Source: a virus (lineage: Duplodnaviria > Heunggongvirae > Uroviricota > Caudoviricetes). From it: a stretch of 45,074 nucleotides of DNA. The position numbers and the translations under genes were made by a program. A model generated the notes under the pieces. It saw only the letters and a list, made by a program, of their open reading frames with translations, made no database searches and had not been told where the DNA came from. The stretch covers positions 1 to 45,074 of the IMG/VR virus record IMGVR_UViG_2908567220_000008; one strand, given 5' to 3'. This document shows, in pieces, positions 7,007 through 34,107 of this stretch (the stretch's first letter is position 1; every line of letters starts with the position of its first letter).

Positions 7007-7082
7007 ATAGCAATGAGTATTAACCATAGCAATACGTATTGTTATTATTTGATAGCTATTGCTATTAAATCATTGATAGCTA
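7007..7082. promoter_or_regulatory. Operator-like repeat cluster (putative OL-type operator and promoter region)
   Basis: ATAGCAAT at 7007 and 7026; near-palindrome ATAGCAATACGTATTGTTAT at 7026-7045; ATAGCTATTGCTATTA at 7052-7067; TTGATAGCTA at 7073-7082. The same ATTGCTATTA core recurs between cI and cro. Confidence 0.4.
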
Positions 7083-7144
7083 AATGAATTTATTTTTTCC
7101 TATTGTGCTGTTATGCTCAAAAAAACGCCAAAAAGGGTAGCGCC

Positions 7145-7348
7145 ATGTCGAATGAGGATGAGTTTTTCGCAGAGATGCACCCGCAGATTGCGCAGGTCAT
7201 CGGGATAGCGGTTATGCAGCTGCTGGTTGAGAGGCGCGAGCCATCAAGAGAGGCGCTGATAGAGATGATTCAGGTGTTGTGGCAGGGTGACCAGGTAGAT
7301 CTGGCAGTAGAGCTGGCACTGGATGTGCTGATGCTGCGGGAAGAGTAG
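7145..7348 (+). CDS. Hypothetical small protein (67 aa)
   Basis: ATG at 7145 (MSNEDEFFAEMHPQ...), in the same frame as the longer track ORF 7103..7348. Plus-strand gene convergent with the kinase module. Confidence 0.5.
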   Translation: MSNEDEFFAEMHPQIAQVIGIAVMQLLVERREPSREALIEMIQVLWQGDQVDLAVELALDVLMLREE

Positions 7349-7354
7349 GGCAGT

Positions 7355-7377
7355 AAAAACCCGGCGCGGTGGCCGGG
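7355..7377 (-). terminator. Intrinsic terminator for the kinase/DUF3037 transcription unit
   Basis: GC hairpin cccggc-gcggtg-gccggg (7360-7377) followed on the minus strand by a U-run (plus-strand aaaaa, 7355-7359), 17 nt past the stop at 7394. Confidence 0.55.
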
Positions 7378-7393
7378 TGCTGGCAACAGTTTG

Positions 7394-8212
7394 TTAGTTA
7401 AAATTAAGGCTTTTCCCGGCAGCGACTAACATATGATCGTAGTATTTAGACATATCTTCGCTACTTAGCAAGTTGAAGACATTGTCAGCATAACCTCCAA
7501 CCAAGTTAAGTTGCTGAGAGTGCGCTTTTTCCTGAGGTGTATCAGCAGCATAAACCACAAAAGTCTTCACGCAGTTATTCCACTTGGTCTTAGCTGCGTT
7601 TATTGTCACAGCTTTAAACGCTGACTCACCCATTTTTTGGCGATTATTGGAAATCCGTAGATCTAAGGTTTCAGTTAAATGATAAATTCCATTTTTTAGT
7701 AAAAGTTCAGCATAAAGACCTTCAGATTCAGAAAGCGGATACCCCTGAACCACTTTATGCTCGCTAATTTCCTTGAGATTCTTACCCATAACTCCTTCTT
7801 TTTCAAACCTATCCTTAAGCTCGGTAATAATTCTTTTTTGAGAAACTTCAGTTCTTTTCTTCGCTCGCTCAGGTGTTATGAATAATTTATTTAATTCATT
7901 GATTTTTAATTCATATTCACGTTCATTGGCAGCATGAAATGTACCTACGCTTGACAAGGCAAAGCTACCTTGGAAAAAGAGAGAAGCCTGTTCGATGCTT
8001 AAGCCAGAAGTTAAAATAGTCTCCAGTTGCTTCTGGCTATTTTCTAATGCTTCAAGCCCAAAATCATTTGTAATAGCTTTTAGTTTAGTAGGGGTTTCTA
8101 TGACGCGCACATCTGGGCCAGATGGCTTCATGACGACAAGGCCAACGTTGATTGTCTCGGCGCGGACAGGGTTCGGTGTTATTCTGACAATACTGTATTT
8201 ATATGTATTCAT
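7394..8212 (-). CDS. DUF3037-like protein (272 aa), partner of the HipA-like kinase
   Basis: N-terminus YSIVRITPNPVRAETINVGLVVM resembles the DUF3037 family (from memory, needs HMM confirmation). ATG overlaps the kinase stop (ATGA). Visibly AT-rich. Confidence 0.6.
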   Translation of the reverse strand: MNTYKYSIVRITPNPVRAETINVGLVVMKPSGPDVRVIETPTKLKAITNDFGLEALENSQKQLETILTSGLSIEQASLFFQGSFALSSVGTFHAANEREYELKINELNKLFITPERAKKRTEVSQKRIITELKDRFEKEGVMGKNLKEISEHKVVQGYPLSESEGLYAELLLKNGIYHLTETLDLRISNNRQKMGESAFKAVTINAAKTKWNNCVKTFVVYAADTPQEKAHSQQLNLVGGYADNVFNLLSSEDMSKYYDHMLVAAGKSLNFN

Positions 8213-9033
8213 TTCAGCACCTCCCCTCTAACAGTGTCGATTCGTTTCATTCTGCCGTCGCTTGACCACCAGGTTAGCAGAGCATCCCTCTGCAAAGGAT
8301 TGATCCATGCTTCCGGCATGTCTTCAAAAATCCGTTCTATCGTGCTAGAGCTAATTCTGGATAGCTTATCCAATACAGCTTCCGCAGGCGCTTTACACGA
8401 AACATCATTATATGTCAACTGCTTGATCGCTTGCCAGCAGTTTGTGGTGTTGTAGCCCATTGGTATTAGGGCTGCGTCGGTTTTGTTCGGCCAACCCATA
8501 ACCATAGCTGCAAGGCTGAAATCGAAGGCTTGGATAGTCAGGTTTCCATATCGGTTCTTAGTGTACAGATAGTTACCAATATGCCTATCAATATTAAATA
8601 CGAACTGATCGAAGGCGTAAACTGACCATACTTGCTTCCGTAGAATAGAAGGTCCGGACATCAATTCAGCGGCAAAGTTAATTTCTTCTTGTGGCTTACT
8701 CATGGCAGCCAGGTCATATTTTGATCCAAAAAAGTGCTCTCCTGTATCCGGGTCAATCAAAACCCTACAGGCCGGGGTAGGAAGCCCACTAAATTCAGCA
8801 AGTTTAGTACATAGCCATTCTGATGCTGGAATTTGCTTTGGGTGGGGAATCCCTGTCAAAGCGGATGCATCACCATCAGAAACCCCTTTTATTGCATACT
8901 CTAAACCGTCGGAGGCCATAACTGTATGCCTTAGGTGAGCTGTGCCCATTGCTGGCTTATAATCCACAATCTCAAGACTAAACAAGGGTTCTTGAATAGT
9001 AATGTTCTTTTCAGGTTGTGAGTCTTCTTCCAT
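8209..9033 (-). CDS. HipA-like / CtkA-like atypical kinase-fold protein (274 aa)
   Basis: FNIDRHIGNYLY matches the N-x-D-x-H-x-x-N catalytic-loop pattern of HipA-family kinases (E. coli HipA has D-x-H-x-K-N). AT-rich coding sequence. Confidence 0.6.
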   Translation of the reverse strand: MEEDSQPEKNITIQEPLFSLEIVDYKPAMGTAHLRHTVMASDGLEYAIKGVSDGDASALTGIPHPKQIPASEWLCTKLAEFSGLPTPACRVLIDPDTGEHFFGSKYDLAAMSKPQEEINFAAELMSGPSILRKQVWSVYAFDQFVFNIDRHIGNYLYTKNRYGNLTIQAFDFSLAAMVMGWPNKTDAALIPMGYNTTNCWQAIKQLTYNDVSCKAPAEAVLDKLSRISSSTIERIFEDMPEAWINPLQRDALLTWWSSDGRMKRIDTVRGEVLK

Positions 9034-9342: not shown

Positions 9343-10041
9343 TTACCCATGCTTCCTGTACGTCTGCGGCATGCTGCCGATCACCTTGCCGAACACGAAA
9401 ACACGATTCATTTCGTCTTTCTCGATCGGGTCCCAGGCTGCATAGCTCTTGTTATCTGAGATAACCAGCAGCTTGTCCTTCATCTTCTGCAGGCGCTTGA
9501 CGTGAGCAGTGTCGTCGTACAGGAAGGCGTATATCCCGTCGCCGTCGAAGCTCTTAACGCTGATGTCGACGAACAGCAGATCACCCGGCTCAATCGTGCC
9601 GGACATGCTGTCACCCCGGACGTTGATGATCCGGATGTTCTCAGCCTTACGCCCATCGAACATGTGCCGGGCTTCAGCTGGCTCATACTCAACAGAACGG
9701 AGAATCTCGACGAACTCCTGGTTCACGATGCCCGGCCCGGCACTAACCATAAGGTCCAGCACATCAATCCTGAATGCATCAGTATCCTGGCTTTTAACCT
9801 GGGCAGCGCGAGGGAGCTGGCCGTCATCGCGCATCGGTCCATTTCCGGTTGATAACCATTCAGACCTGACGCCCAAAGCATTAGCTATCTCGACAATTTT
9901 TGTTGAACCCCTGGCGTTTCCACTCACCAGGCGCCAAATGGTTGGCTGAGCAATACCTGAGGCCTTCGCAAGCGCCCCTTGTGACATTCCAGCCGAAGCC
10001 ATGGCCTCGTTTAAACGATCTGCAAGAGTTTCTTTTTTCAT
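9343..10041 (-). CDS. cI: CI-type phage repressor (HTH_XRE plus S24 LexA-like autopeptidase)
   Basis: N-terminal HTH (MSQGALAKASGIAQPTIWRLVSG) and C-terminal S24 signature (VRGDSMSGTIEPGDLLFVD ... VKRL). Start taken at the ATG at 10041; the track ORF begins at a TTG at 10104. Confidence 0.85.
   Translation of the reverse strand: MKKETLADRLNEAMASAGMSQGALAKASGIAQPTIWRLVSGNARGSTKIVEIANALGVRSEWLSTGNGPMRDDGQLPRAAQVKSQDTDAFRIDVLDLMVSAGPGIVNQEFVEILRSVEYEPAEARHMFDGRKAENIRIINVRGDSMSGTIEPGDLLFVDISVKSFDGDGIYAFLYDDTAHVKRLQKMKDKLLVISDNKSYAAWDPIEKDEMNRVFVFGKVIGSMPQTYRKHG
9347..9372. repeat. Direct repeat copy 2 (authentic 3' end of cI)
   Basis: ccatgcttcctgtacgtctgcggcat, encoding the last residues of CI (MPQTYRKHG). 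Confidence 0.7.
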
Positions 10042-10152
10042 AATCTCAAATTTATACGCTTGCGTATTACTGGTCAAAACACGTTTTGCTATTGCTAAAA
10101 CCAATACGCATTGCTATTATCATTTTGCACCAATACTTATAGGAATTGGAAC
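10042..10152. promoter_or_regulatory. Divergent cI/cro operator-promoter region (OR-like)
   Basis: Intergenic region between divergent cI and cro containing GCTATTGCTA (10088-10097) and ATTGCTATTA (10110-10119) next to CAATACG. Confidence 0.5.
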
Positions 10153-10380
10153 ATGACGAACAAAACCATCCAGAAGGCAATTGATATCGCTGGCAGTCAG
10201 AAAAAATTGGCCGATCTGTGTGGCGTAGCGCAGCCGACAGTTTGGCGCTGGCTGCATGGCGGCGGAATTGACGCTCGCTATGTAATGAAAATCGTGTCTG
10301 CGACCAACGGCAAGATTAAGGCGGCAGAGATCAGGCCTGACCTTGCTCAGTTGCTGAGCGCGCATTCACCGGCCGCCTAA
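10153..10380 (+). CDS. cro: Cro-like HTH regulator
   Basis: 75 aa from the ATG at 10153; HTH QKKLADLCGVAQPTVWRWLHG; divergent from cI. Confidence 0.75.
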   Translation: MTNKTIQKAIDIAGSQKKLADLCGVAQPTVWRWLHGGGIDARYVMKIVSATNGKIKAAEIRPDLAQLLSAHSPAA

Positions 10381-10420: not shown

Positions 10421-10642
10421 ATGGAGAGTTCAACGACACGCAACAAAGTGGAGGCTCGCAGGATAGAAAGCTGGTTACACAGCCAGATAGCTGAACTGGG
10501 AACCACGAATATCGCCAAAGTGGCCGGAGTGAATAAGTCGACGGTGAGTCGCTGGCGGGAAAGTCTGCTGCCGAACATGTCGCTGCTGCTGGCCATCCTG
10601 ATTTCTAACAGGCCGGGAGAGAAAGGTGATTTTGAAGCATGA
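10421..10642 (+). CDS. cII: CII-like transcriptional activator
   Basis: 73 aa; alignable by eye to lambda CII (RIESWLHSQIAELGTTNIAKVAGVNKSTVSRWRESLLPNMSLLLAIL versus lambda ALRIESALLNKIAMLGTEKTAEAVGVDKSQISRWKRDWIPKFSMLLAVL). Confidence 0.8.
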   Translation: MESSTTRNKVEARRIESWLHSQIAELGTTNIAKVAGVNKSTVSRWRESLLPNMSLLLAILISNRPGEKGDFEA

Positions 10643-10727
10643 GTGGGAACAGAAAGGCGAAAGCCGCAGTGCAGCAACACTAACGGCTTTCTACGCGAAT
10701 TAACTGGATCAATTCACAGGAGTAATT

Positions 10728-11582
10728 ATGGCAAATACTGCCGAGGTAATCAATTTCCCTGTGCCTGTCGTGGCACTACAGGAGCTGCGCGTGGCAGATC
10801 TCGACGATGGGTTTACGCGCATCGCCAATGAGCTCCTTGAAGCTGTCATGCGTGCGGGTCTGTCGCAGCATCAGCTTTTGGTGTTCATGGCTGTCATGCG
10901 CAAAACATACGGCTTCAACAAGAAATCTGACTGGGTCAGTAACGAGCAGCTCTCGGAGCTGACCGGCATTCTCCCGCATAAGTGCTCAGCTGCAAAAAGC
11001 GTCCTGGTTAAGCGGGGGATATTAACTCAAACCGGTCGTGTTATCGGGATTAATAAAACGGTCAGCGAATGGTCATCTTTACCCGTAAAAGGTAAAGAAA
11101 AAAAACCTTACCTGAAAAAGGTAACATTACCCGAATCAGGTAAGAAAAGTTTACCCGAATCAGGTAACGCCTATTACCCGAATCAGGTAAACACAAAAGA
11201 CAAACATACAAAAGACAATAAAGACAATATTAATAACCCCCCTAAATCCCCCCGGGCGGTTTCGTTCGATGCGTTAGCTGTTCAGTTGCCTGACTGGCTT
11301 TCTGCAGAAATCTGGTCGTCATGGGTGGCATATCGTCGCGACCTGAAAAAGCCGATCAAGTCTCAGCAGACGGTCACCCAGGCTATCAACCTGCTGGACC
11401 GCTGCAGACTGAACGGTTACGCGCCCGAAGAAATTATCAACCGCAGCATCGCCAATGGCTGGCAAGGCCTGTTTGAGCCAAATGGTGCCAAGCCTCAACC
11501 AAGTCAACAGGTGCGAGTTGCCGAAAATTTCGCAGGGAAGGATTACGGGCAGACTGAAATCCCATCATGGGCGAGGGACTGA
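10728..11582 (+). CDS. Replication initiator (lambda O-like) with embedded origin
   Basis: 284 aa; N-terminal DNA-binding region; iterons lie inside the coding sequence; followed by a DnaC-like loader. Confidence 0.8.
   Translation: MANTAEVINFPVPVVALQELRVADLDDGFTRIANELLEAVMRAGLSQHQLLVFMAVMRKTYGFNKKSDWVSNEQLSELTGILPHKCSAAKSVLVKRGILTQTGRVIGINKTVSEWSSLPVKGKEKKPYLKKVTLPESGKKSLPESGNAYYPNQVNTKDKHTKDNKDNINNPPKSPRAVSFDALAVQLPDWLSAEIWSSWVAYRRDLKKPIKSQQTVTQAINLLDRCRLNGYAPEEIINRSIANGWQGLFEPNGAKPQPSQQVRVAENFAGKDYGQTEIPSWARD
11088..11240. repeat. Origin iterons plus adjacent A-rich tract (ori-lambda-like)
   Basis: Three exact TTACCCGAATCAGGTAA copies (11127-11143, 11151-11167, 11174-11190) and two degenerate copies upstream, spaced about 20-24 bp, followed by an A-rich tract. 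Confidence 0.65.
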
Positions 11583-11584
11583 TC

Positions 11585-12436
11585 ATGGAACTGGAAGAAA
11601 AAATCACTGCCATTGAGCGGATGCTTGATCAGCTGAGTAAGCCACCGGAAGACATCCCGAATTGCGAGGTGGTTATCGAGCGCGTCTGTTGTGAAAAGCA
11701 TGGCGAGTATGAGCAGCGCAAGCGGATCCTGACCAGCAGCATCATCAATCTGCCATCACCGCCGACACGCTGCCCGGGCTGCCTGGAAGACGAACTGAAT
11801 TTTCTGAAGGATGAAAAGGTTCGCTGGGATAAGCGAGTTCGCCAGCAAACTGCAGAAAGGCTGCTTCGCCAGCTGGATATACCAGAGCGATTCTCCACGT
11901 GCACTCTGAACAGCTACAAGCCTGTTGGGAAGGATTCTGAGCGAGCATTACGGGTCTGCCAGGCCTACGCATCGAAATGGACTGATCGCCTCCAGCAGGG
12001 AGGTGGGTTGGTTATGTGTGGCAAGCCTGGTACCGGTAAAAACCACCTTGCGCTGGCCATTGCCCGCCATGTGATTGAGCACCACCAAAGCTCAGTCATT
12101 TTCACGACGGCGCTCAAGATTGCCCGGGAGTTTAAATCGACCTGGTCAAAAACAGCCACGCGCACTGAGGATGAGGTGATCAGCTACTTCACGAAGCCAG
12201 ACCTTCTGATTGTCGATGAGGTTGGTGTGCAGTTTGGCAGCGAAGCCGAGAAGATGATCATGTTTGAAATCATCAACACCCGCTACGAGCGCCTGAAGCC
12301 GACGATCCTGATCAGCAACCTGCCGAAGGATGAGCTGACGCAGTTTATCGGCGAGCGCGTCATCGACCGCATGAACGACGGCGGAGGCTGCACGATTTCG
12401 TTTACCTGGGACAGCTATCGGGAGAACAGGTCATGA
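11585..12436 (+). CDS. DnaC-like helicase loader (IstB-type AAA+ ATPase)
   Basis: Walker A GKPGTGKNHLALAIA and Walker B LLIVDEVG. Start taken at the ATG at 11585, just after the O stop; the frame opens at 11567. Confidence 0.85.
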   Translation: MELEEKITAIERMLDQLSKPPEDIPNCEVVIERVCCEKHGEYEQRKRILTSSIINLPSPPTRCPGCLEDELNFLKDEKVRWDKRVRQQTAERLLRQLDIPERFSTCTLNSYKPVGKDSERALRVCQAYASKWTDRLQQGGGLVMCGKPGTGKNHLALAIARHVIEHHQSSVIFTTALKIAREFKSTWSKTATRTEDEVISYFTKPDLLIVDEVGVQFGSEAEKMIMFEIINTRYERLKPTILISNLPKDELTQFIGERVIDRMNDGGGCTISFTWDSYRENRS

Positions 12437-16962: not shown

Positions 16963-17407
16963 ATGCCTGCGATCCGGTCAGGGCTCTTGGGTAGAGACGT
17001 GCTGCACGACACGTCAAAGCCCTTCCGCGCAGAGCCCTGAACCAGATTGAAGTTACTCAGCAATAAGAAAACTGCATGTCATCATTTGCTTATATCTTAT
17101 TGACCAGAAAATTAACATGTTGTTAATCTATTCGTGTGGTGAATTCCCCTATGCGGAGGGGCGACCAGTCACTTACAGTGATCTGTAAATGCAGCGCGGG
17201 CCATGTCGACTGGGACATGCTCACTGGGAGGCACCCGGCACCATAATGCAATGCTACATAAGCTATTTGATAGTGGGGTTGCCGTTTCGGCTTCTCCAGC
17301 TATGTTTAAAAGGTAGTAACGGAAAACGAGCGCTCTCCTGGTAAATCGGAAGCTCGGACTATTAGGTGCGCCTCGAACCGTTGAAGAATCAGTATTTCCT
17401 ACCTTCT

Positions 17408-17499: not shown

Positions 17500-17574
17500 G
17501 GGTCAGAAGCACAGCGGTTGTGCGTTCGGCTGTTAACCGAATGGTCGAAGGTTCGAATCCTTCCTGTCCCGCCA
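17500..17574 (+). tRNA. tRNA-like gene, anticodon GTT (Asn) by manual folding
   Basis: 75 nt with encoded CCA; T arm gaagg-ttcgaat-ccttc; anticodon loop ctGTTaa; acceptor stem has one T-T mismatch, so it may be atypical or a pseudo-tRNA. Confidence 0.5.
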
Positions 17575-17579
17575 AATTA

Positions 17580-17656
17580 GCGCCATTAGCTCAACCGGAG
17601 AGAGCAATAGCCTTCTAAGCTATCGGTTTCAGGTTCGAGTCCTGAATGGTGCACCA
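17580..17656 (+). tRNA. tRNA-Arg (anticodon TCT)
   Basis: 77 nt cloverleaf folded by hand: acceptor gcgccat/atggtgc, D stem gctc/gagc, anticodon stem atagc/gctat with loop ctTCTaa, T arm tcagg-ttcgagt-cctga, encoded CCA. Confidence 0.75.
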
Positions 17657-17925: not shown

Positions 17926-18240
17926 ATGCAACGTATGAACCCAACCGATGGTCACAATCTGCCTTACTGGTGGTCAGCCTTGCTTGGTATCTTTTCCGTC
18001 CTGAGTCTGCAGGATTATGTCTTCATCATTGGCGCCCTGATCTCTGCCTTCTTCACAATCAAGACGTATTACGCAAAGCGCAAGGAAGAGCGAGAGCGAC
18101 TGGATGAAGAGAAAAAACGCACGCAGCTGTTGGCCAGTTATCTGGCTGATGTCTCCGCAAAGCCTGGAGGTGACCGCCCGGCTTCAGCCGAAGTGGTAAC
18201 CGAGGCCTTGAAGCGGATCGCAAGTGATACACAGGGGTGA
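17926..18240 (+). CDS. Holin, two-TM class
   Basis: 104 aa with two hydrophobic helices ([29 protein letters not shown]) and a charged C-tail; strong RBS ggaggtgagag; first gene of the lysis cassette. Confidence 0.7.
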
Positions 18241-18746
18241 GCATGACGCCATCAATGAGGAATAAACTGATTGGCGTGATCGCCGGCGGCGGTGGCGCCA
18301 TAGCCATTGCCTCTGCGCTTATCACTGGCCCAACTGGTAACGATGGTCTTGAAGGTGTGCGCTATGACCCCTATCAGGATGTGGTAGGCGTCTGGACTGT
18401 CTGCTATGGCCATACTGGCAAAGACATCATGCTCGGCAAGAAGTACACCGAGGCTGAATGCCGTGCGCTGCTCAGCAAAGACCTGAACACCGTTGCTCGC
18501 CAGATTAATCCTTACATCCAGAAGCCGATCCCCGAGACAATGCGCGGGGCTCTGTACTCGTTCGCGTATAACGTTGGCGCTGGCAACTTCCAGACCTCCA
18601 CGCTGCTGCGAAAAATCAACCAGGGCGACCAGAAAGGCGCATGTGACCAGTTGCGCCGCTGGACCTACGCCAAGGGCAAACAGTGGAAAGGCCTGGTAAC
18701 TCGCCGCGAGATTGAGCGCGAAGTTTGTCTCTGGAGTCAAAAATGA
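18237..18746 (+). CDS. SAR endolysin (T4-lysozyme-like glycoside hydrolase)
   Basis: N-terminal Gly/Ala-rich signal-anchor-release helix ([21 protein letters not shown]) and catalytic E-x8-D-x5-T motif ([17 protein letters not shown]). Confidence 0.85.
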
Positions 18747-19132
18747 GCCGGTTAACCGCCATTATCAGCGCCATTGCGATCTGCCTGGTTGTTTGCCTTG
18801 GTTGGCTGGCAATGCATTACCGCAACGCTGCTGCTGAGCAGAAAACCAGAGCCGATAGCGCTGAGCAGCAGGTAAACGCAGCACAGGCGATCACCTCCAA
18901 CGTTCTGACCACCATGACCATCTTCAACACCATCGCCGAGGCCAATCAGCATGCAAAAGAGCAGATCGCACTGGACGCATCGGGAGCCTCGGCTGATATC
19001 CGGGTTGCTGTTGCGAATGATGATTGCACTAATCGCCCTGTCCCTGCTGGCGCAGTTAAGCGGCTGCAACAATTCGCGAACGGTCTACGTCAAAGTGCCG
19101 GTAGTCCCGTTACCGGCCAGCCTGACGGCTGA
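18743..19132 (+). CDS. i-spanin (Rz-like)
   Basis: N-terminal TM ([20 protein letters not shown]) then a periplasmic helical domain; ATG overlaps the endolysin stop. Confidence 0.7.
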
Positions 19133-19274
19133 CACCCCGCAACCGGAAATCCCTGACAACCTGACGTGGGGCCAGAGCCTAGATTTAAACGTCAGTCTCC
19201 TATCAGCGCTTGGGCAGTGCAACCGGGATAAGGCAGATATTAGGCAAGCTGTAAAGAAACAAGCGGGCCAATAA
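19017..19274 (+). CDS. o-spanin (Rz1-like lipoprotein), overlapping the i-spanin in another frame
   Basis: Start [17 protein letters not shown] with lipobox LSGC and a Pro-rich mature part; begins inside the Rz-like gene and extends past it. Confidence 0.65.
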   Translation: MMIALIALSLLAQLSGCNNSRTVYVKVPVVPLPASLTADTPQPEIPDNLTWGQSLDLNVSLLSALGQCNRDKADIRQAVKKQAGQ

Positions 19275-19301
19275 GCCCGCACTTATGGAGGATTCAAAAT
19301 G

Positions 19302-19901
19302 TTACAGAACCCACCACCTGATCGAATCTGTGGGTATGGTTGCAGCCTCGACATTCTGGATCATACCCAACTCGGTGGCCCTTCCCGGATCAATGATGGT
19401 TGCAGAAGTGATCAAATTAGCCCAGTCAATTTGCTCATCTGGGGCTACAGCGAGAGCCTCGATATTCATCACCTGCACAAATCTTTGCAAGTCGTCATCC
19501 AGACATGCCGCCCATTCCCTAAGCCTGAGGTGATCTGCTTGTGGGGCGGCAAATCCCCAATGTAAAGGATGTAATAAAAATCGCGAGAGAGGATTAGCAA
19601 ACCGCTCAGATCCAGCCATGAAAATAACATTTGCTATAGATTCCACGTTACTAAGGTTATGTGTCTTCACCTTTACAGGAAGAGACTTAAGAAAGTTGTA
19701 TGCGGTAAAACCTGCAACGGTATCTCCACCTTTACTAGAGATGTAAATCCTGATCTCAGAGGCTGGTTGGTTAGGGCTTGATATCGCTTTGAGGCAAACA
19801 TCCATAAGGCTGGATACAGAAGCAACTGTTACATCTGTCATGAAGTGTACGGTATGGATCATTTCAGTTTCCCAGAGATATGCCGCAATTGGCATTTTCA
19901 T
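19302..19901 (-). CDS. Stand-alone Clp-fold serine protease (ClpP-like, SDH-type) moron
   Basis: Alignable by eye to ClpP: IRIYISSKGGDT (ClpP LYINSPGG), FMAGSERF (ClpP AASMGA, Ser), LLHPLHWG (ClpP IHQPLG, His), Asp in DHLRLRE. Start uncertain (ATGs at 19910/19901/19895; the track TTG is at 20018). AT-rich; opposite strand to neighbours. Confidence 0.7.
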   Translation of the reverse strand: MKMPIAAYLWETEMIHTVHFMTDVTVASVSSLMDVCLKAISSPNQPASEIRIYISSKGGDTVAGFTAYNFLKSLPVKVKTHNLSNVESIANVIFMAGSERFANPLSRFLLHPLHWGFAAPQADHLRLREWAACLDDDLQRFVQVMNIEALAVAPDEQIDWANLITSATIIDPGRATELGMIQNVEAATIPTDSIRWWVL

Positions 19902-20011
19902 AATGCACATAAAGTGAAAGGTTTTCTGCGTAAACCCGGATGAAATAATTTCATGAAGTAAGGCATTACAGAGCCACTTCCAGAGGTGGCTCGATAATGT
20001 TGGAGGAAACC

Positions 20012-20650
20012 ATGTCAACGCTTAAGGATTTATCCCGGCAGCTAAAGCAGCTGCAGAAGCAAATCCCTTTCGCCACGGCGCAAGCCATGACATCGGTAGT
20101 AAGGGATATCGCCGCAGCGCAAAAGGTGGCACTGGGGCGAAAACTGGAATCGCCGACGCCGTTCACCGTCAACTCAGTGGGCTCTGCTGGCGCCAGAAAG
20201 AACAACCTCCGCGCAAAAGTCTTTGTGCGCGATGTCGCCGCTGAATATCTCGAACCCTTTGAATTTGGTGGTGAACATAAACTGAACAGCCAGGCGCTGC
20301 TCAATCCAAAGAACATCAAACTGAACAAATACGGCAACATGCCGCGAAATAAGCTGTCGCAGTTGAAAGCGAAGCCGAATGTGTTCGTAGGTGAGGTCAA
20401 TGGTGTTGATGCTGTCTGGCAGAGGCGTAAACCGAAGAAGGCGAAAAAGAAACGAGCCCGGCGCTCAGCGAATGGTACGCGCAGACCAAAGCGGAAACAG
20501 CGTGCTCCTAAGCTGCTGGTGAGGTTTGGTGATGCTCTACCTGTTACGCCTACGCTTGACTACATGAACCGCTCACGGTCAATGGCAGCCGGCTTAATGC
20601 CCGGCGCGCTGAGTAGGGCGATTGAGGAAGCGATTCGAACAGCAAAATGA
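20012..20650 (+). CDS. Hypothetical basic protein (213 aa)
   Basis: Start at ATG 20012 (MSTLKDL...); contains a Lys/Arg-rich stretch KPKKAKKKRARRSANGTRRPKRKQR; lies just upstream of the cos-like repeats. Confidence 0.5.
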   Translation: MSTLKDLSRQLKQLQKQIPFATAQAMTSVVRDIAAAQKVALGRKLESPTPFTVNSVGSAGARKNNLRAKVFVRDVAAEYLEPFEFGGEHKLNSQALLNPKNIKLNKYGNMPRNKLSQLKAKPNVFVGEVNGVDAVWQRRKPKKAKKKRARRSANGTRRPKRKQRAPKLLVRFGDALPVTPTLDYMNRSRSMAAGLMPGALSRAIEEAIRTAK

Positions 20651-20751
20651 CCTGAATACCTACCCCATAGGGTTTGGGTCCTTCCTGAGACTTTTGTAAG
20701 GCACGGGCATTGCGCGCCGCAGTGTTTTCCTAGCTACAAACTTTTATTTTG

Positions 20752-20898
20752 TGTCCCATGTCCCACCCCAAGGGATCGCCAGCCACGCCAGAGCCAGCAC
20801 GGATTATTCCATTTATTCCAGTGGGACATTCGTGTGGGACATTGAAAAAATGTCCCAGGTAAATGTCCCACCCCAAAAATGTCCCAGGTGATGTCCCA
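20752..20898. promoter_or_regulatory. TGTCCCA repeat array, putative terminase small-subunit binding sites (cosB-like)
   Basis: Eight copies of TGTCCCA or its complement TGGGACA within 147 bp (direct at 20752, 20759, 20851, 20864, 20880, 20892; inverted at 20822, 20835); the last overlaps the terS ATG. Confidence 0.5.
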
Positions 20899-21461
20899 TG
20901 ACCACGATGAACCAGAGTCAGTACGCGCAACATTCAGGCGTCGATCGCAAGACTATTGGCCGATGGATCAAGGCTGGTCGGTTTATCGTCATGGATGGCG
21001 ACCTGATTGATGTTGAGGCGAGCGATGCCGCGCTGAAGAAAAACCGTGATGGAAAAGATCCGCGGGCATCAAACGCGAAGAAGAAAAAAGCCCCAGCACC
21101 CCGGAATGATGGCGACGATGAAATTGATGAAACCGTTCGCCAGATAATGTTTACAGAAGGTGCAGTCCTTTCCAGGGAAGAGGCCGCGCGGATCCGTGAA
21201 AATTACATGGCCCTGCAGGCAAAGCTCCAGTATGAAAAAGACAGCGGCCAGACAATTGAATTGGCCATCGCCGAGGAGGTTCTGTTTAACGCCTTTCGCC
21301 AGCAGCGTGATGCCTGGCTGAACTGGCCTTCACGCGTGGCACCGCTGATAGCCGCCGATCTGAATGTGCCGGCGGACAGGATGACAGAGGTGCTGATTGA
21401 ACATGTCCACAAACATATCTCAGTCCTCGGAGAACCAGAGTTTAACCCAGCGGAAGATTGA
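20898..21461 (+). CDS. Terminase small subunit (lambda Nu1-like)
   Basis: 187 aa; N-terminal winged-HTH (NQSQYAQHSGVDRKTIGRWIKAG); directly upstream of and overlapping the large terminase. Confidence 0.8.
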   Translation: MTTMNQSQYAQHSGVDRKTIGRWIKAGRFIVMDGDLIDVEASDAALKKNRDGKDPRASNAKKKKAPAPRNDGDDEIDETVRQIMFTEGAVLSREEAARIRENYMALQAKLQYEKDSGQTIELAIAEEVLFNAFRQQRDAWLNWPSRVAPLIAADLNVPADRMTEVLIEHVHKHISVLGEPEFNPAED

Positions 21462-23529
21462 GCGTCTTCAACTGAGTGTCCGGAAAGGGTGGACACCGCC
21501 GCCGCGGATCAGCGTCCCGCAATGGGCCGATGACTACCGGAAGCTGGCGAAAGAAGCTGGCAGTACCTCCGGGAACTGGGAAACATCAACGGTTGAAATT
21601 GCCCGCGGTCCTATGCTGGCCGCGACGGAATCGGGCGTCCACATTATCACCGTGATGTGCTGTACCCAGTTAATGAAAACCGCGCTGCTGGAAAACCTGT
21701 TTGGTTATTTTGCGCACCTCGACCCATGTCCGATTTTGCTCCTGCAGCCGAAGGAAGAGGCCGCTGAGCAGTTTTCCAAAGAACGCATCAGCCCGCTGGT
21801 TAGGGTAACGCCAGTTCTGCGTAACATCATAGGTGACTCAAAGCAGAAGAGTTCAAAAGAAACCATTCTGTATAAAGCTTTCACCGGCGGATTTCTGGCG
21901 CTGGCCGGCGCCGGTAGTCCAGATAACCTTGCGCGCCGTCCGATCCGTGTTCTGCTGGCAGATGAGGTGGATAAATATCCGATTACCCGTGAGGGCGATC
22001 CCATCGCTCTGGCGGAAGAGCGAACCGCCACATTTGGCCTTAACTGGCTGTCCGTGCGGGCTTGTTCGCCGACGGTCGAAGATGAAAGCCGGATTGCTGA
22101 CAGTTACGAAGATTCAGATCAGCGGCGGGCCTCTGTAGTTTGCCCCCATTGCGGGCACCGACAGTTCCTTGATTTCTTCAAACATGTTCAATGGCCAAAA
22201 GAAGGTGATAAGCACCTGACCAAAGCGGCCATGATCCATTGTGAATGTTGTGGTGCTGGCTGGTCAGAGGGTGAGCGTCTGCGGGCATTACAGACAATCC
22301 GCTGGCATCAGACCAAACCGTTTGAATGTTGTGGTTCCCGCCATTCACCATTAATGGAATACGACCAGAAATGGCATGAAGGAGACGAGGGCAGTGTTGA
22401 TGCCGTCTGGCGCTGGTCAGAGTCGGAACGGCATGCCGTATACCGGGCGATTTGCCCGGACTGCGGGGCCGAGGCGCTGGATAATCACCACGCCGGGTAC
22501 CAGGCGTCAAAACTCTTCAGTCCCTGGCAAAAAGACAAGCCATCGGACATTGCAAAGAAATACCTCGATGCGAAAGGGGATCCGGATAAGGAACAGGCCT
22601 GGTGGAACACCCAGATGGGGTTGCCGCACCGGCCTAACCACGGGAAACAGCTCCCGGTTGATGTCCTGCTGGCGCGCCGTGAAGTCTTCCCGGCCGTCGT
22701 TCCTGATGGCGTGGCATTGTTAACTGCGGGCGTCGATACCCAGGATGACCGATTCGAAATCACGATCACTGGCTGGGGGCGGGACGAGGAATCGTGGTCA
22801 GTTGCGCATGACGTCATTTATGGCGATCTGGAGACTGAGGAACCCTGGAAGCGCCTCGATGCGTACCTGAAACAGATATGGCGACGCGGCGACGGGCGAG
22901 GGCTGAATATTCTGGCTGCATGTATGGACTCCGGCGGTCACCACACGCAAAAGGTTTATGAGTTCTGCAAAGATCGCCTTGGGCGCCGCGTCTGGGCTAT
23001 CAAGGGCGAATCTGCGCAGGGTGGGAAACGCAACCCCGTCTGGCCAACCAAGCGACCGACATCGAAAAGTAAAGCCAGCTTCAGGCCAATTATACTTGGC
23101 GTGAACTCTGCGAAAGATGTTGTCCGTGGTCGTCTGCATCTTGAACCGCCAGCTTTAGGTACTGCCGGTGCGGGCTATATGCACTTCCCGGATGATCGTG
23201 ACCTCGGATATTTCAACCAGCTGCTGGCCGAGCGACTGGTTTATAAAGTGGTGGCCGGTCAGCGATTCAGTGTCTGGGAGCCTATCCCCGGACGGGCGAA
23301 CGAAGCACTCGACTGCCTCGTTTACAGCTATGCCGCGTTGTGTGGGCTGAAACATATGGGATTAAAACTCAATGTTCGGGCCGCTAACCTTCAGGCCGAT
23401 CCCGATAAGTTCCTGCCGGCGCCAGCCGAGCCAGAAGAAAAAATCAATTACGAATTACCGGGTGCCATCGTGGATGAGGCTATGGCTCCTGTTAAGCGTA
23501 AGAACATTTCTAAACTCCTGCCGCAATAA
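21403..23529 (+). CDS. Terminase large subunit (lambda gpA family)
   Basis: About 708 aa; lambda gpA-like throughout by eye, including the Cys cluster CPHCGHRQF and C-terminal EALDCLVYSYAAL (lambda EALDCFVYALAAL). First ATG at 21403; the track TTG is at 21397. Confidence 0.9.
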   Translation: MSTNISQSSENQSLTQRKIERLQLSVRKGWTPPPRISVPQWADDYRKLAKEAGSTSGNWETSTVEIARGPMLAATESGVHIITVMCCTQLMKTALLENLFGYFAHLDPCPILLLQPKEEAAEQFSKERISPLVRVTPVLRNIIGDSKQKSSKETILYKAFTGGFLALAGAGSPDNLARRPIRVLLADEVDKYPITREGDPIALAEERTATFGLNWLSVRACSPTVEDESRIADSYEDSDQRRASVVCPHCGHRQFLDFFKHVQWPKEGDKHLTKAAMIHCECCGAGWSEGERLRALQTIRWHQTKPFECCGSRHSPLMEYDQKWHEGDEGSVDAVWRWSESERHAVYRAICPDCGAEALDNHHAGYQASKLFSPWQKDKPSDIAKKYLDAKGDPDKEQAWWNTQMGLPHRPNHGKQLPVDVLLARREVFPAVVPDGVALLTAGVDTQDDRFEITITGWGRDEESWSVAHDVIYGDLETEEPWKRLDAYLKQIWRRGDGRGLNILAACMDSGGHHTQKVYEFCKDRLGRRVWAIKGESAQGGKRNPVWPTKRPTSKSKASFRPIILGVNSAKDVVRGRLHLEPPALGTAGAGYMHFPDDRDLGYFNQLLAERLVYKVVAGQRFSVWEPIPGRANEALDCLVYSYAALCGLKHMGLKLNVRAANLQADPDKFLPAPAEPEEKINYELPGAIVDEAMAPVKRKNISKLLPQ

Positions 23530-23537
23530 GGAAAACC

Positions 23538-23801
23538 ATGTTTAACCGAAACACGAGCTTACTTGCTGGTGGGATGACTGATGAGCAGCTCAGAGACGCT
23601 CTGCAGAAAGCGCAGCAGGCTTATATCGACCTGACTACCGGCAGCCGTGGCGTCTCATTCTCCTATACGCAGGGTGATGGGACGCGCTCTGTCTCCTATC
23701 AGCAAAGCTCTCTCGCCGACCTGCTGGCGCTGATTCAGTTGCTGCAGGCGCAACTGGGAATTGTCGCCCGGCCACGGAAGCCAGTGAGGTTCAGATTCTG
23801 A
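23538..23801 (+). CDS. Head-tail joining protein (gpW-like)
   Basis: 87 aa between terminase and portal; gpW-like sequence and position. Confidence 0.7.
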   Translation: MFNRNTSLLAGGMTDEQLRDALQKAQQAYIDLTTGSRGVSFSYTQGDGTRSVSYQQSSLADLLALIQLLQAQLGIVARPRKPVRFRF

Positions 23802-25435
23802 TGAATAAAGTGCAAATCCTTGGTCCTGACGGGAGACCTTATCAGGCACCAAAACCCAGCATGTTGACGGGCGGTAGCCGGGTGCCATATGACGCCGCGG
23901 ATTCCTTCAGCGATCAACTGGCGAACTGGCAGCCCGCACTATGGTCACCGGATAACGAAATTAATATCTACCGTGACCGTATAGTTTCCCGTGCGCGGGA
24001 TCTGGTCCGAAATGATGGATGGGCCAATGGTGCCATAACTCGCCTGCTTGATAATGCGGTCGGCGCCAATTTCCGTCCGATCATGAAGCCTGACTATCGT
24101 GTATTACGGATGATGACAGGTAATAAAAGTTTTGACGCAGTATGGGCGGAAGAGTACGGAAAAGCACTCGCTTCCCACTGGAGAACCTGGGCATACGACA
24201 CAGGCCGTTATTGTGACGTTGAGCGCAAGCTAACCGTTCCACAAATGTTGCGTCTGGCCTTTCGCCACAAGCTGATTGATGGCGATGCCCTGATGGTGCT
24301 TCAGTATCGCACCGATCGCCTTGGACCAGGTAAGGGGCGTTATGCCACGACGGTGCAGGTTGTTGATCCCGACAGACTCAGTAACCCGCAGCAGAATTTT
24401 GATATGCCGAATATCCGCGGCGGCGTTGAAATTGATGCTGACGGCGCACCTGTGGCTTATCACATACGTGAAGCACATATCGGTGACTGGTGGAGTGGCG
24501 CCAAAACAATGACATGGCGACGAATCCCGCGCGAAACCGCATGGGGGCGCCCGCACGTTGTGCACGACTTTGACCATGAGCGTGGAGCTCAGCATCGGGG
24601 GAATGGCATTCTGACTCCAGTAGTGCAACGTCTGAAGATGCTGGTGAAGTACGACCAGAGCGAGCTGGAAGCAGCAATTCTGAATGCTATCTTCGCCGCG
24701 TATATTGAGTCTCCATACGATCCCGAAATGATCCAGTCCGCGCTGGGGGAAAACTTCGAAGAGGGATTGGGAGCATACCAGGATGGTCGTGCAGAGTTTC
24801 ATAATGATCGCCGTTTGACGCTGCAGAATGGCGCCCGTATGCCGATCCTTTATCCAGGGGAGAGAATAACAACGGTCAACGCTGCCCGCCCTTACAGCAA
24901 CTTTGAGGTTTTCGAGTCTGCAGTATTGCGTAATTTCTCATCCGGTACGGGGTTATCTCCTCAGCAGGTTACACAGGACTGGTCTGATGTGAATTACAGC
25001 TCTGCGCGATCTTCCTTGCTGGAAGCATGGAAAACGCTCACCCGCCGACGTGATGATTTTTCCATGGGTACCGCTCAGCCGCTTCTGACGGCCTTTGTGG
25101 AGGAAGTTCACGATAACGAGGATTTACCTCTACCTAATGATGCCCCTGATTTTGTTGATGCCCGGGCTGCGTATTCCCGTGCGCGCTGGATGGGGCCGGG
25201 GCGAGGATGGGTTGATCCGGTGGCAGAGAAAAAAGGCGCCATTCTCGGCCTCGATGCCGGCCTTTCCACTCTCGAAATTGAAGTGGGTGAAAACGTGGGT
25301 GAGGACTGGGAAGAGATACTTGATCAGCGCCAGCGGGAAATTGAGTCCTGCCTGAAGCGCGGACTTCCATTACCTAGCTGGGCGCAGGCGGACCAGTTCG
25401 CCAGCCAGACAATTACCGATCCGGAGGAAAAGTGA
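23801..25435 (+). CDS. Portal protein (lambda gpB family)
   Basis: 544 aa following gpW-like gene; lambda-type portal by size, order and sequence. Confidence 0.85.
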   Translation: MNKVQILGPDGRPYQAPKPSMLTGGSRVPYDAADSFSDQLANWQPALWSPDNEINIYRDRIVSRARDLVRNDGWANGAITRLLDNAVGANFRPIMKPDYRVLRMMTGNKSFDAVWAEEYGKALASHWRTWAYDTGRYCDVERKLTVPQMLRLAFRHKLIDGDALMVLQYRTDRLGPGKGRYATTVQVVDPDRLSNPQQNFDMPNIRGGVEIDADGAPVAYHIREAHIGDWWSGAKTMTWRRIPRETAWGRPHVVHDFDHERGAQHRGNGILTPVVQRLKMLVKYDQSELEAAILNAIFAAYIESPYDPEMIQSALGENFEEGLGAYQDGRAEFHNDRRLTLQNGARMPILYPGERITTVNAARPYSNFEVFESAVLRNFSSGTGLSPQQVTQDWSDVNYSSARSSLLEAWKTLTRRRDDFSMGTAQPLLTAFVEEVHDNEDLPLPNDAPDFVDARAAYSRARWMGPGRGWVDPVAEKKGAILGLDAGLSTLEIEVGENVGEDWEEILDQRQREIESCLKRGLPLPSWAQADQFASQTITDPEEK

Positions 25436-26298
25436 ATCTACCTCATCTGGCCCAGCGCCTTTTTAATACACCGCTGGCGCTGCACCCAAGTAAAGCTGAA
25501 GTCATCATGGCATCCGTTATGGACCGGTTTGGCATCAGTAAAATCGAATCCTCTCTTGCCATGGATGATGACTGGTATGGATACGACGATAACCGGGGGC
25601 GGGAATCCCGTAGCGACCCGGGTTATGACAATGTGTTGGGCGTCGCTGTCATCCCGATATGTGGGACCCTGGTGCAGAAGCTGGGTAGCCTGCGCCCATA
25701 CAGTGGCATGACAGGCTATGACGGCATTCGTCAGGCCTTCCTGACTGCGATGGAAGACCCCGATATTACAGGGATCTGCCTGGATATTGATTCGCCAGGA
25801 GGCGAGGTCGCCGGATGTTTCGATCTGGTCGATGTCATTTATGGCGCCCGCGGGAAAAAGCCCATCCATGCCATTCTGACGGAAAGCGCCTATTCCGCCG
25901 CCTATGCGATTGCCAGTGCGGCGGACCGGATTTCTGTTCCCCGAACCGGTGGTGTGGGTTCAGTTGGTGTGATCACTATGCACCTTGACTGGACCCAGCG
26001 GATAAAAGATGACGGCCTCAAAGTCACCATCATCACCTACGGTTCCCGTAAGGCTGAGGGGTCACCGCTGAGAGAGCTGTCAGATGAAGCGCTGGCGGCT
26101 ATTCAGCAGGACATCAACACCATGGGCGAATTGTTTGTGAATACCGTCGCCAGAAATCGGGGGATTAGCGCAAAGGTTATCAAAAGTACTCAGGCTGCCT
26201 GTTTTATGGCTGCTGATGGTGTGGAACTTGGACTGGCTGATGAGGTGTGTCCTCCTGATGCTGCGTTCAGAAACTTACTTGAAAAAACAGGAGCCTGA
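25432..26298 (+). CDS. Prohead protease (S49 / lambda gpC family)
   Basis: 288 aa S49 (SppA-like) peptidase; GTG start at 25432 preceded by ggagg and overlapping the portal stop. Confidence 0.85.
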   Translation: MNLPHLAQRLFNTPLALHPSKAEVIMASVMDRFGISKIESSLAMDDDWYGYDDNRGRESRSDPGYDNVLGVAVIPICGTLVQKLGSLRPYSGMTGYDGIRQAFLTAMEDPDITGICLDIDSPGGEVAGCFDLVDVIYGARGKKPIHAILTESAYSAAYAIASAADRISVPRTGGVGSVGVITMHLDWTQRIKDDGLKVTIITYGSRKAEGSPLRELSDEALAAIQQDINTMGELFVNTVARNRGISAKVIKSTQAACFMAADGVELGLADEVCPPDAAFRNLLEKTGA

Positions 26299-26299
26299 A

Positions 26300-26890
26300 A
26301 TGGCGAAGAAAAAGACTTTTAGTTTTGCTCATCTTATTGGCCGTGGCGCGACTGCTTCCGAAGAGGAAGAGGACAAAAAGGCCAAAAAAGCGAAAGGCCG
26401 TCGCGCGGAAGAGGATGAGCGCGAAGATGATGCCGGGGACGATGAACGCGAAGATGACGCGGAAAACGACGATCGTGATGATGACGCTGAAGATGACGGT
26501 GACGACCCGGATGCGGCTGAAGACGATGACGATTCCGAAGATGACGGCGACGATGACCGCAAAGAAAGCAAAGCGGTGAAAAATGCCCGCGCCGCCGAGC
26601 GTAAACGTTGCGCCCGTATCTTCGGCAGTAAGCACGCTGCGGCGAATCCGTCACTGGCCGCTTCACTCGCATTCAATACCGGGATGAGCTCTGCCGCCGC
26701 TATCGATGTTCTGGCATCCACGGCGCCAGCCTTGCAACCAAAGGCAACGCGCGGGCGCTCTCTCGATCAGCGCATGCAGGAAAGCCATGATGTCCGTCTG
26801 AATCCGGATGGCGGCAAGAAAGAGAACGGTAAATCGGCACTGGTAAACCAGATGACCGGCCTCTACAACTCCATTAAAGGAGAGAAATAA
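26300..26890 (+). CDS. Putative head scaffolding protein with acidic repeats
   Basis: ATG at 26300 (MAKKKTFSF...); central run of ED/DD repeats; positioned between protease and decoration protein (lambda Nu3 slot). Confidence 0.55.
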   Translation: MAKKKTFSFAHLIGRGATASEEEEDKKAKKAKGRRAEEDEREDDAGDDEREDDAENDDRDDDAEDDGDDPDAAEDDDDSEDDGDDDRKESKAVKNARAAERKRCARIFGSKHAAANPSLAASLAFNTGMSSAAAIDVLASTAPALQPKATRGRSLDQRMQESHDVRLNPDGGKKENGKSALVNQMTGLYNSIKGEK

Positions 26891-27297
26891 TGGATCAATT
26901 TGGTCAGAATGCCTTTGCACCTGGCATGAAGAGTTCAGTGTTTGTGCCGGATCAGTTAATTGCCGGTACGCTGCAACTGGTCACTGACACCGGCACGATC
27001 ACCGGCGGTGTGTATAAGCGTGGCACTGTGCTTGGCATGATCACCGCCAGTGGCAAATATACAGCCAGTGTGAAAACCGCAACGGATGGTAGCGAGACGC
27101 CAGCGGCCATTCTGGTTGATGATGTTGACGCTTCCACCCATGGCGATCAGTCCGGCGGCCTGTACCTGATGGGCGAGTTCAACCAGAATCATATTATTTT
27201 TGACGATTCCTGGACTGCGCCGGAACTGAAAACAGCACTACGTCCGCTGGCCATCTTCCTGAAAGACAGCGCCCAGGCACCTTTAACCACCTCCTGA
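26890..27297 (+). CDS. Head decoration protein (lambda gpD-like)
   Basis: 135 aa immediately upstream of the major capsid gene; gpD-like sequence. Confidence 0.7.
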   Translation: MDQFGQNAFAPGMKSSVFVPDQLIAGTLQLVTDTGTITGGVYKRGTVLGMITASGKYTASVKTATDGSETPAAILVDDVDASTHGDQSGGLYLMGEFNQNHIIFDDSWTAPELKTALRPLAIFLKDSAQAPLTTS

Positions 27298-27395
27298 TTT
27301 ATCCCTCATTTATCCTGGCGAATGCTTTAACCGGCAGGCGCTGACCTATTTAAAATTTATGCCAGCGTCTAGCTGGCATTATCAAGAGACTGAAT

Positions 27396-28445
27396 ATGGA
27401 AAATATTTATGATACCAGTGTGCTGGTGCAGGTCGTTCCTAACCTGAAAACCAGTCAGAACTGGCTGCTTGATCGCTTCTTCCCGAACGTCGTGACTTAT
27501 GAGACCGAAGAAGTAGCGATTGACGTGGATGTCGGCCTACGTCGTATGGCGCCATTCGTCTCCCCGCTGGTGGAAGGTAAGCTGGTCGAGTCCCGTAAAT
27601 ACCAGACCAATACGTTCAAACCGGCGTACATCAAAGACAAGCGGGCGCCGGACCTGCGTAAACCTATTCGCCGCCAGATTGGTGAGCGTATTGGCGGTGA
27701 ATATACCGCCGCAGAACGCGAAATGTTGAACCTGCAGTTTGAGATGACTGATCAGATTGACATGATCAACCGTCGGCTGGAATGGATGGCGGCCAGCGCG
27801 CTGGTGTCCGGTACCGTCACGGTTGCCGGGGAAGGCTATGAAACCAAAGTGGTGGATTTCGGGCGCTCTCCGGATTTGACTATCACTCTGAGTGGTTCAG
27901 ATAAGTGGCCGTTGACGGTTGCCGCGGGTGCCACTAATACCCAGCCCTCTGATGATATTGAAATCTGGCAGACGCTTTTCCTGAAAGAATCCGGTTCCGT
28001 CGCGACAGATCTGGTGTTCACAAGCAAGTCATGGCGTGCTTTCCGACTGGACACCACCATCAAAGATAACGCCATCACGTTCCCGGCGCTGAGCCCGTTT
28101 GGTAACCAGATTAATGCTGGTCCACAGGCGATGAAGGGCGCTATTTATAAAGGTCGCTGGGGTAACTTTGACCTCTGGTTATATAACGACTGGTTTATTG
28201 ACCCACTTGATAATGTCGAGAAGCCGATGATCCCCGACGGCGCCGTTATTATGTCTGGCGCTGATCTGATGGGTACCCGCGCTTTTGGCGTTATCCTGGA
28301 CCCGGCATTTAACTACGGTCCCCTGGCCTATGCGCCAAAATCCTGGGTGAAAGAAGATCCGGCCCAGCGTCTTATCCTGATGCAATCCTCCCCGCTGGTT
28401 ATTCCGAGCCGGGTAAACGCATCCCTCTGCGCGACGGTGGTCTGA
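27396..28445 (+). CDS. Major capsid protein (lambda gpE family)
   Basis: 349 aa; gpE-like sequence (MAPFVSPLVEGKLVESR ... FKPAYIKDKRAP) and position. Confidence 0.85.
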   Translation: MENIYDTSVLVQVVPNLKTSQNWLLDRFFPNVVTYETEEVAIDVDVGLRRMAPFVSPLVEGKLVESRKYQTNTFKPAYIKDKRAPDLRKPIRRQIGERIGGEYTAAEREMLNLQFEMTDQIDMINRRLEWMAASALVSGTVTVAGEGYETKVVDFGRSPDLTITLSGSDKWPLTVAAGATNTQPSDDIEIWQTLFLKESGSVATDLVFTSKSWRAFRLDTTIKDNAITFPALSPFGNQINAGPQAMKGAIYKGRWGNFDLWLYNDWFIDPLDNVEKPMIPDGAVIMSGADLMGTRAFGVILDPAFNYGPLAYAPKSWVKEDPAQRLILMQSSPLVIPSRVNASLCATVV

Positions 28446-28446
28446 T

Positions 28447-28824: not shown

Positions 28825-28828
28825 GCAT

Positions 28829-29730: not shown

Positions 29731-29732
29731 TC

Positions 29733-31426: not shown

Positions 31427-31429
31427 AAC

Positions 31430-31801: not shown

Positions 31802-31802
31802 G

Positions 31803-34076: not shown

Positions 34077-34085
34077 CCCTATTAA

Positions 34086-34107
34086 ACCGCCACCCTGGCG
34101 GTTTTTT
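34086..34107 (+). terminator. Putative intrinsic terminator after the tape measure gene
   Basis: Hairpin accgcc-accct-ggcggt followed by ttttt. Confidence 0.4.

Follow-up and report, generated by a model that had tools for sequence, protein, structure and literature searches.

A predicted ori-lambda-type replication origin inside the O-like initiator gene of a lambdoid prophage

A lambdoid prophage of Klebsiella type very probably replicates vegetatively (theta mode) from the segment between position 11079 and about 11236, which is homologous to ori-lambda. This segment lies in the window, i.e., the whole stretch of 45,074 nt analysed here (IMG/VR virus record IMGVR_UViG_2908567220_000008, Caudoviricetes), within an O-like initiator gene, and comprises five dyad-symmetric iterons of the form TTACC-N7-GGTAA that run into an A-rich tract. 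The homology to ori-lambda is deduced from the iteron spacing, from the ACACAAAAGACA box that follows the last iteron, from the position of the annotated rep_origin of P22 and from the identity of the O N-termini. The element is a previously unannotated member of the well-known family of lambdoid origins, representing an O-plus-DnaC subtype with TTACC-N7-GGTAA iterons.

The iteron array, the A-rich tract and the initiator gene

The features of the origin region are as follows (positions of the window).

9343-10104, divergent: cI-type repressor gene with S24 peptidase domain
10092-10120, plus strand: candidate pR-like promoter upstream of the cro-like gene (9-of-12 consensus match only)
10111-10380: Cro/YdaS-like HTH gene, upstream of cII
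10421-10642: cII, upstream of O
10703-10735: 33-nt box ACTGGATCAATTCACAGGAGTAATTATGGCAAA
10725-10753, minus strand: candidate pO-like (oop) promoter, overlapping the O start codon
10728-11582, plus strand: O-like initiator gene, 284 aa (Phage_rep_O and O-like PHROGs)
about 10728-11078: N-terminal Phage_rep_O DNA-binding domain of O
11079-11095, plus strand: iteron 1, degenerate TTACCCGTAAAAGGTAA, three mismatches in the central 7 nt
11108-11124, plus strand: iteron 2, degenerate TTACCTGAAAAAGGTAA, three mismatches, starting 29 nt after iteron 1
11127-11143, plus strand: iteron 3, perfect TTACCCGAATCAGGTAA, encoding LPESGK
11151-11167, plus strand: iteron 4, perfect TTACCCGAATCAGGTAA, encoding LPESGN
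11174-11190, plus strand: iteron 5, perfect TTACCCGAATCAGGTAA, encoding YPNQVN and abutting the A-rich tract
11191-11236, plus strand: A-rich tract, presumed DNA-unwinding element, opening with the ACACAAAAGACA box (11191-11202)
about 11235-11582: C-terminal domain of O (phrog_18589)
11237-11259, plus strand: C-run box CCCCCCTAAATCCCCCCGGGCGG, right boundary of the A-rich tract
11567-12436, plus strand: DnaC/IstB-like AAA+ helicase loader gene, overlapping the end of O

The sequence itself, a repeat finder and a pattern search agree on five 17-nt direct repeats with internal dyad symmetry within 11079-11190. Three of these are perfect and two carry changes at three central positions, with the TTACC and GGTAA arms intact in all five. 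No further match to TTACCCGAATCAGGTAA with up to three mismatches was found anywhere in the 45-kb window, and 100 dinucleotide shuffles of the window gave a chance expectation of 0.08 matches with a maximum of one per shuffle. The start-to-start spacing is 29/19/24/23 nt, A-runs are present within the spacers (AGAAAAAAAACC and GAAAAGT), and the array occupies nt 351-463 of the 855-nt O-like gene, directly after the region encoding the Phage_rep_O domain. The original prediction of three perfect and two degenerate palindromic repeats inside an initiator coding sequence is thereby borne out, with the perfect copies at 11127, 11151 and 11174, the degenerate ones at 11079 and 11108, and all five contained in the open reading frame 10728-11582 that matches Phage_rep_O. 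The extent proposed there, 11088-11240, denotes the same element; its left end cuts iteron 1 and is to be moved to 11079, the right end lying at about 11236. At the position of iteron 1 the E. coli phages of the 4A7 type have a perfect copy, while iterons 1 and 2 are equally degenerate in Klebsiella phages that are 98-99% identical to the window module, and in the lineage of the window these two units may bind the initiator weakly.

The A-rich stretch that had also been predicted to follow the repeats directly adjoins iteron 5. Between 11191 and 11235 it contains 29 A in 45 nt, and no 45-mer of the window is more A-rich when both strands are counted. By nearest-neighbour stability the tract includes the least stable 40-bp duplex of the O gene and falls within the lowest 1% of the window, and a repeat finder reported three ACAAAAGACAA-like units at 11191-11227. 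Boxes related to the adjoining C-run box are found in the origins of mEpX1, HK97, P22, PSTNGR2lys and RCIP0114, and the C-run box is tentatively assigned to the origin. The ACACAAAAGACA box or a variant differing in one or two bases follows the last iteron in the window, 4A7, lambda, HK97, P22, mEpX1, PSTNGR2lys, RCIP0114 and Gifsy-2, and is thus shared across lambdoid origins despite their differing iterons. In all binned comparisons the interval 11178-11222 shows the highest conservation within the O gene, with 91% identity to P22 and 4A7 and 71% to lambda and mEpX1. It is conceivable, if rather doubtful, that the box and the A-rich tract form a sequence-specific element, e.g., one that O or the loader contacts as a single strand, and additionally serve as a shared homology patch for swaps of replication modules.

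The assignment of the initiator gene is based on a match to Phage_rep_O (PF04492) at residues 21-115, which covers profile positions 1-95 of 95 (E 4.2e-36; 123.8 bits against a Pfam gathering threshold of 28.7), and on matches to O-like PHROGs with E-values of 1e-72 to 1e-90. The linker between the two domains of O is encoded by the origin. For the C-terminal domain no Pfam family was found, even at E = 1, and it is covered by PHROG families only; it would recruit the replication partner. Single-sequence AlphaFold2 modelling gave pLDDT values below 50 for residues 1-175 and of about 70-77 for a small C-terminal helical domain, a PDB sequence search returned no solved structure matching O, and the presumed DNA-binding fold is assigned through family membership only. 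The following gene matches IstB_IS21 (E 6e-19) and phrog_50 (E 1e-85), in agreement with the DnaC-like gene that had been claimed beside the O-like gene, and downstream of it a Ren-like gene is located. The gene order cI, cro-like, cII and O is that of lambda. With an integrase gene at its start and a Q antiterminator gene, the window is identified as a lambdoid prophage, and the reading frames of O, the DnaC-like protein, cI, the cro-like protein, cII and Q are all intact.

[quoted passage not shown] By analogy, initiation in the prophage would begin with rightward early transcription yielding the O-like initiator. The candidate pR-like promoter, a consensus match from a scan that returned three sites with 1.7 expected, would drive cro, cII, O and dnaC and carry transcription across the origin, on which initiation would presumably depend. 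Dimers formed by the N-terminal domain of O would then bind the dyad iterons, chiefly the three perfect ones beside the A-rich tract, to form an O-some, a step proposed from the biochemistry of lambda and from the strict pairing between iterons and N-terminal domains described below. The O-some would destabilise the A-rich tract, for which the low stability is computed and the unwinding is postulated, and the C-terminal domain of O would recruit the phage DnaC-like loader, which in turn would deliver host DnaB; this recruitment is suggested by the joint inheritance of the C-terminal domain and the downstream gene. At the start of O, the 33-nt box matches a conserved box of the lambdoid oop promoter and oop 5'-end quoted in PMC3349717, and together with the minus-strand promoter-like site this suggests that an oop-like antisense RNA against cII is probably present.

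Selection on the DNA and rival explanations

Iterons 1, 3 and 4 share one reading frame (TTA CCC GAA TCA GGT, L-P-E-S-G) and iterons 2 and 5 are one base out of that register (Y-P-N-Q-V), and identical 17-mers are thereby translated into unrelated peptides, LPESGK and YPNQVN. Five units with the exact 29/19/24/23 spacing are found in 91 of 124 loci, and most of the others keep the 19/24/23 core. Within the 91 five-unit loci hardly any variation affects the TTACC and GGTAA arms, the changes falling in the central 7 nt and the spacers; the rare arm changes seen in the family are one-sided and not compensatory. Arrays of nine iterons, formed by tandem duplication of a 48-nt (29+19) unit, are present in Kluyvera sichuanensis and at locus L049, and one of the 124 loci has nine units. 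A scan of species-representative genomes revealed the iterons together with the A-box in Kluyvera, two species of Xenorhabdus, Arsenophonus, Providencia and Sodalis. When the 83 nt comprising the last four iterons were compared with the window, the iteron block was 85-93% identical in Kluyvera, both Xenorhabdus species and Providencia, against 61-79% for the N-terminal coding sequence, and in the more diverged Arsenophonus locus the values were 70% and 54%. Candidatus Sodalis endolongispinus keeps eight iterons and the A-box next to a broken N-terminal frame of O. The translation of identical 17-mers in two frames and the higher conservation of the block relative to the N-terminal coding sequence argue that selection acts on the DNA.

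These data bear directly on the reading that the repeats encode a peptide linker (LPESGK-like) between the domains of O and have no cis-acting role as DNA. The repeats do sit in the inter-domain linker, with LPESG encoded by two of them, but a peptide linker is expected to drift faster than a structured domain and the block, at the nucleotide level, has changed more slowly than the adjacent coding sequence of the structured domain. Moreover, peptide repeats have no need of dyad symmetry, would not be expected to appear as LPESGK in one frame and YPNQVN in another, and do not account for a non-triplet spacing that is nevertheless exact in most loci. In Stx phages, replication in cis is lost when synonymous recoding destroys the dyads of the iterons, and O provided in trans does not restore it (PMC7466680). 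The linker reading is accordingly regarded as extremely improbable. That the palindromes act mainly as RNA, either as hairpins in the O mRNA affecting translation or stability or as minus-strand terminators, could be argued from the predicted folding of the 171-nt segment (-43.4 kcal/mol versus -18.8 for shuffles, z = -8.0) and from iterons 3 and 4 scoring as minus-strand terminator-like hairpins with a T-run. Both scores, however, arise automatically for palindromes next to an A-run, and the z-score does not discriminate between the readings. The one-sided arm changes do not point to base pairing, the segment has no Rfam match, biochemical work has established the homologous iterons of lambda as binding sites of O (PMC7466680), and an RNA function would leave both the conserved A-rich tract and the pairing with one DNA-binding family unexplained. 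A main role as RNA is therefore considered very improbable, while the strong predicted structure leaves room for an additional role at the RNA level.

As a third possibility, the prophage could be defective and its origin decayed and without function. In favour of this are the degenerate iterons 1 and 2 and the interval 12500-37400, most of which has no counterpart in sequenced phages (13% is covered at the best place); relics do exist, as exemplified by the Sodalis locus with its retained iterons and broken O frame. Yet the frames of all six regulatory and replication genes named above are open in the window, the three iterons nearest to the A-rich tract are perfect, and work cited in PMC7466680 reports that lambda needs no more than two such iterons in vitro. 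GZ7 and other deposited phage genomes also carry the module with 98-99% identity, and the degenerate state of iterons 1 and 2 is common to those phages. Decay is on these grounds judged unlikely, and an origin homologous to ori-lambda is the preferred reading.

Module pairing and relation to named origins

All 115 usable O N-termini encoded beside a TTACC-N7-GGTAA iteron form one cluster, 70-100% identical to the window, and seven further lambdoid O proteins, which differ in the N-terminus, are associated with different iterons, among them the following.

lambda: TCCCTC...GAGGGA
HK97 and RCIP0114: TTAGC...GCTAA
mEpX1: TGTCTC...GAGACA
P22 and PSTNGR2lys: TTTACC-N5-GGTAAA

The differences between the N-termini of these O proteins are concentrated in alignment residues 80-97, which would correspond to the recognition helix, and the type of iteron appears, as a correlation, to be matched to the type of initiator N-terminal domain. 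The C-termini show another pattern, as at least six C-terminal classes of O occur beside the TTACC-N7-GGTAA iteron. The lambda-type C-terminus is followed by P in 66 of 66 cases and the window-type C-terminus by a DnaC-like gene in 23 of 26. At single loci, two other classes precede a DnaB-like gene product of about 456-458 aa and one other class precedes a 627-aa protein of unknown family. From these associations, the C-terminal domain and its downstream partner appear to swap as a module that is separate from the N-terminal domain and the iterons. Along the gene, binned identity to 4A7 stays at 71-91% as far as 11222 and drops sharply thereafter, and identity to mEpX1, which has the same C-terminal class, rises from 11178 onward, which places the mosaic joint between the origin-specificity and the loader-recruitment module at the A-rich tract. 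Work on lambda hybrids established that origin specificity is a property of the N-terminal half of O and partner specificity one of its C-terminal half, and the two-module pattern seen here matches this classical picture.

One of the nearest known origins is ori-lambda, with four iterons of 18-19 bp (ITN1-4) and an AT-rich tract inside gene O. The annotated lambda iterons start at 39034, 39054, 39078 and 39101, i.e., with a spacing of 20/24/23, compared with 19/24/23 for the last four of the window. The iterons are likewise dyad-symmetric, the coding-strand A-rich tract likewise lies to the right of the last iteron, and the first 12 nt after it, ACACAAAAGACA, are identical in both. The two O proteins share 40% identity over residues 1-165, and a protein comparison gave no similarity to lambda O for the 115 C-terminal residues of the window O. 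The origins further differ in the iterons, TTACC-N7-GGTAA in five copies versus TCCCTC-N6-GAGGGA in four, in the C-run box that follows the A-rich tract in the window, and in the downstream partner, a DnaC/IstB-like AAA+ loader in the window and P in lambda. The window does not belong to the lambda O-P module type, having neither a lambda-type C-terminus of O nor a P-family gene next to it, and its origin would work like ori-lambda as an O-DnaC subtype. The proposed ori-lambda architecture is upheld by the spacing, the ACACAAAAGACA box, the position within the gene that matches P22 and the N-terminal identity; to call the initiator divergent is fair relative to lambda with its 40% identity, although the module itself is very common.

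The E. coli phages 4A7, Perceval and 1W have the same iteron family, the same five-unit 29/19/24/23 layout and the same A-box as the window. Their O N-terminal domain is 82-85% identical to that of the window, and in these phages the origin module is joined to an O C-terminus of the lambda type, followed by P. In P22, a rep_origin annotated as 'similar to phage lambda' (BK000583, 32840-32984) covers nt 352-496 of gene 18, compared with nt 351-509 of the O-like gene for the window origin; nt 1553-1697 of the P22 locus sequence were compared with window positions 11079-11190. The P22 O-type N-terminal domain is 59% identical to the window (58-59% for PSTNGR2lys and P22), and the P22-type iterons have the same arms (TTTACC/GGTAAA) in four units, with N5 rather than N7 and thus a spacer that is about 2 bp shorter. 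The A-rich tract of P22 is nearly identical to that of the window (91% in the 11178-11222 bin), whereas its C-terminal domain differs and its partner is a DnaB-like helicase (gene 12). The specificity between the iteron classes of the window and P22 may be set by dimer geometry and half-site spacing and not by base recognition.

The C-terminal family of the window O followed by a DnaC-like loader is found in mEpX1, N7, Gifsy-1/2 and Rac (ydaU-ydaV), with C-terminal identities to the window of 62% for mEpX1, 43% for Gifsy and 45% for Rac YdaU. With mEpX1 the window also has the C-run box and the right end of the A-rich tract in common, but mEpX1 differs in its N-terminal domain and its iterons (TGTCTC-N7-GAGACA), and Gifsy-2 also differs in both, with at least seven copies of a lambda-like iteron ATCCCCGAAAACGGGGA. 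Phage 82, whose origin has five repeats and whose P is compatible with lambda, may likewise possess an origin of the TTACC-N7-GGTAA type. Within the papers covered, a literature search on the phage 82 and phi80 origins returned only discussions of lambda, Stx phages, P22 and phage L.

Distribution and prophage context

The replication region is 98-99% identical in the Klebsiella phages 6 LV-2017, GZ7 (recorded as from hospital sewage), RCIP0034 and RCIP0098. Their records label the gene 'replication protein O' or 'hypothetical protein', and no origin feature is present at this element in the nearest phage records inspected. In a scan of IMG/VR the exact 17-mer was present in at least 119 virus contigs. 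Among complete E. coli genomes, 2,409 of 5,426 (about 44%) gave a hit to the 171-nt origin segment at E <1e-20. Most of these E. coli matches are 80-90% identical and, among the matches listed, they lie under genes annotated 'replication protein'. The TTACC-N7-GGTAA origin is therefore among the commonest lambdoid origin types and not rare.

The module was also encountered in records deposited as plasmids. A 4.6-kb Klebsiella 'plasmid' carrying it is a linear fragment from cI to ren. The Klebsiella pneumoniae records CP089956.1 and NZ_CP127232.1 are circular 'plasmids' of about 28 kb that contain chromosomal sapCDF, fabI and rnb as well as half a prophage, which extends from int to lysis with the same origin and immunity and is bounded at its end by a copy of IS26; neither record lists a replication gene of plasmid type. 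Both could be either IS26-mediated circles or assembly artefacts. The idea that they represent lambda-dv-like circles with a broken repressor was rejected, as their cI reading frame is unbroken, with 98% identity to the cI of the window.

The analysis provides a precise origin of 160 bp for a prophage family that is common in Klebsiella, E. coli and other Enterobacterales and that is left unmarked in the phage records inspected. The TTACC-N7-GGTAA class of origin specificity would help to predict incompatibility or exclusion between co-resident prophages, and further uses would be lambda-dv-type vectors for Klebsiella and the interpretation of marker-frequency data after induction. The understanding of how lambdoid origins work is unchanged by the origin of the window.

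Further observations were made elsewhere in the prophage. The late structural region (about 18000-37400) has little nucleotide similarity to any record of the phage collection, and for 12500-37400 the 13% covered at the best place lies entirely in the nin/Q/lysis part, from which it follows that sequenced phages represent the virion module poorly. An STnc100-family sRNA (17107-17301, 70.6 bits) and two tRNA genes (17500-17571 and 17580-17653) lie downstream of the gene for the Q antiterminator. Between the early-left genes and cI, two adjacent minus-strand open reading frames encode a HipA-like kinase (8209-9033; PF20613, E 1e-6) and a DUF3037 protein (7394-8212; PF11236, E 5e-8; PADLOC candidate PDC-M66B, E 6e-7), and an AT-rich island extends over about 7060-7920. 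The HipA-like/DUF3037 pair has the look of a moron carried by the prophage or of a candidate defence pair.
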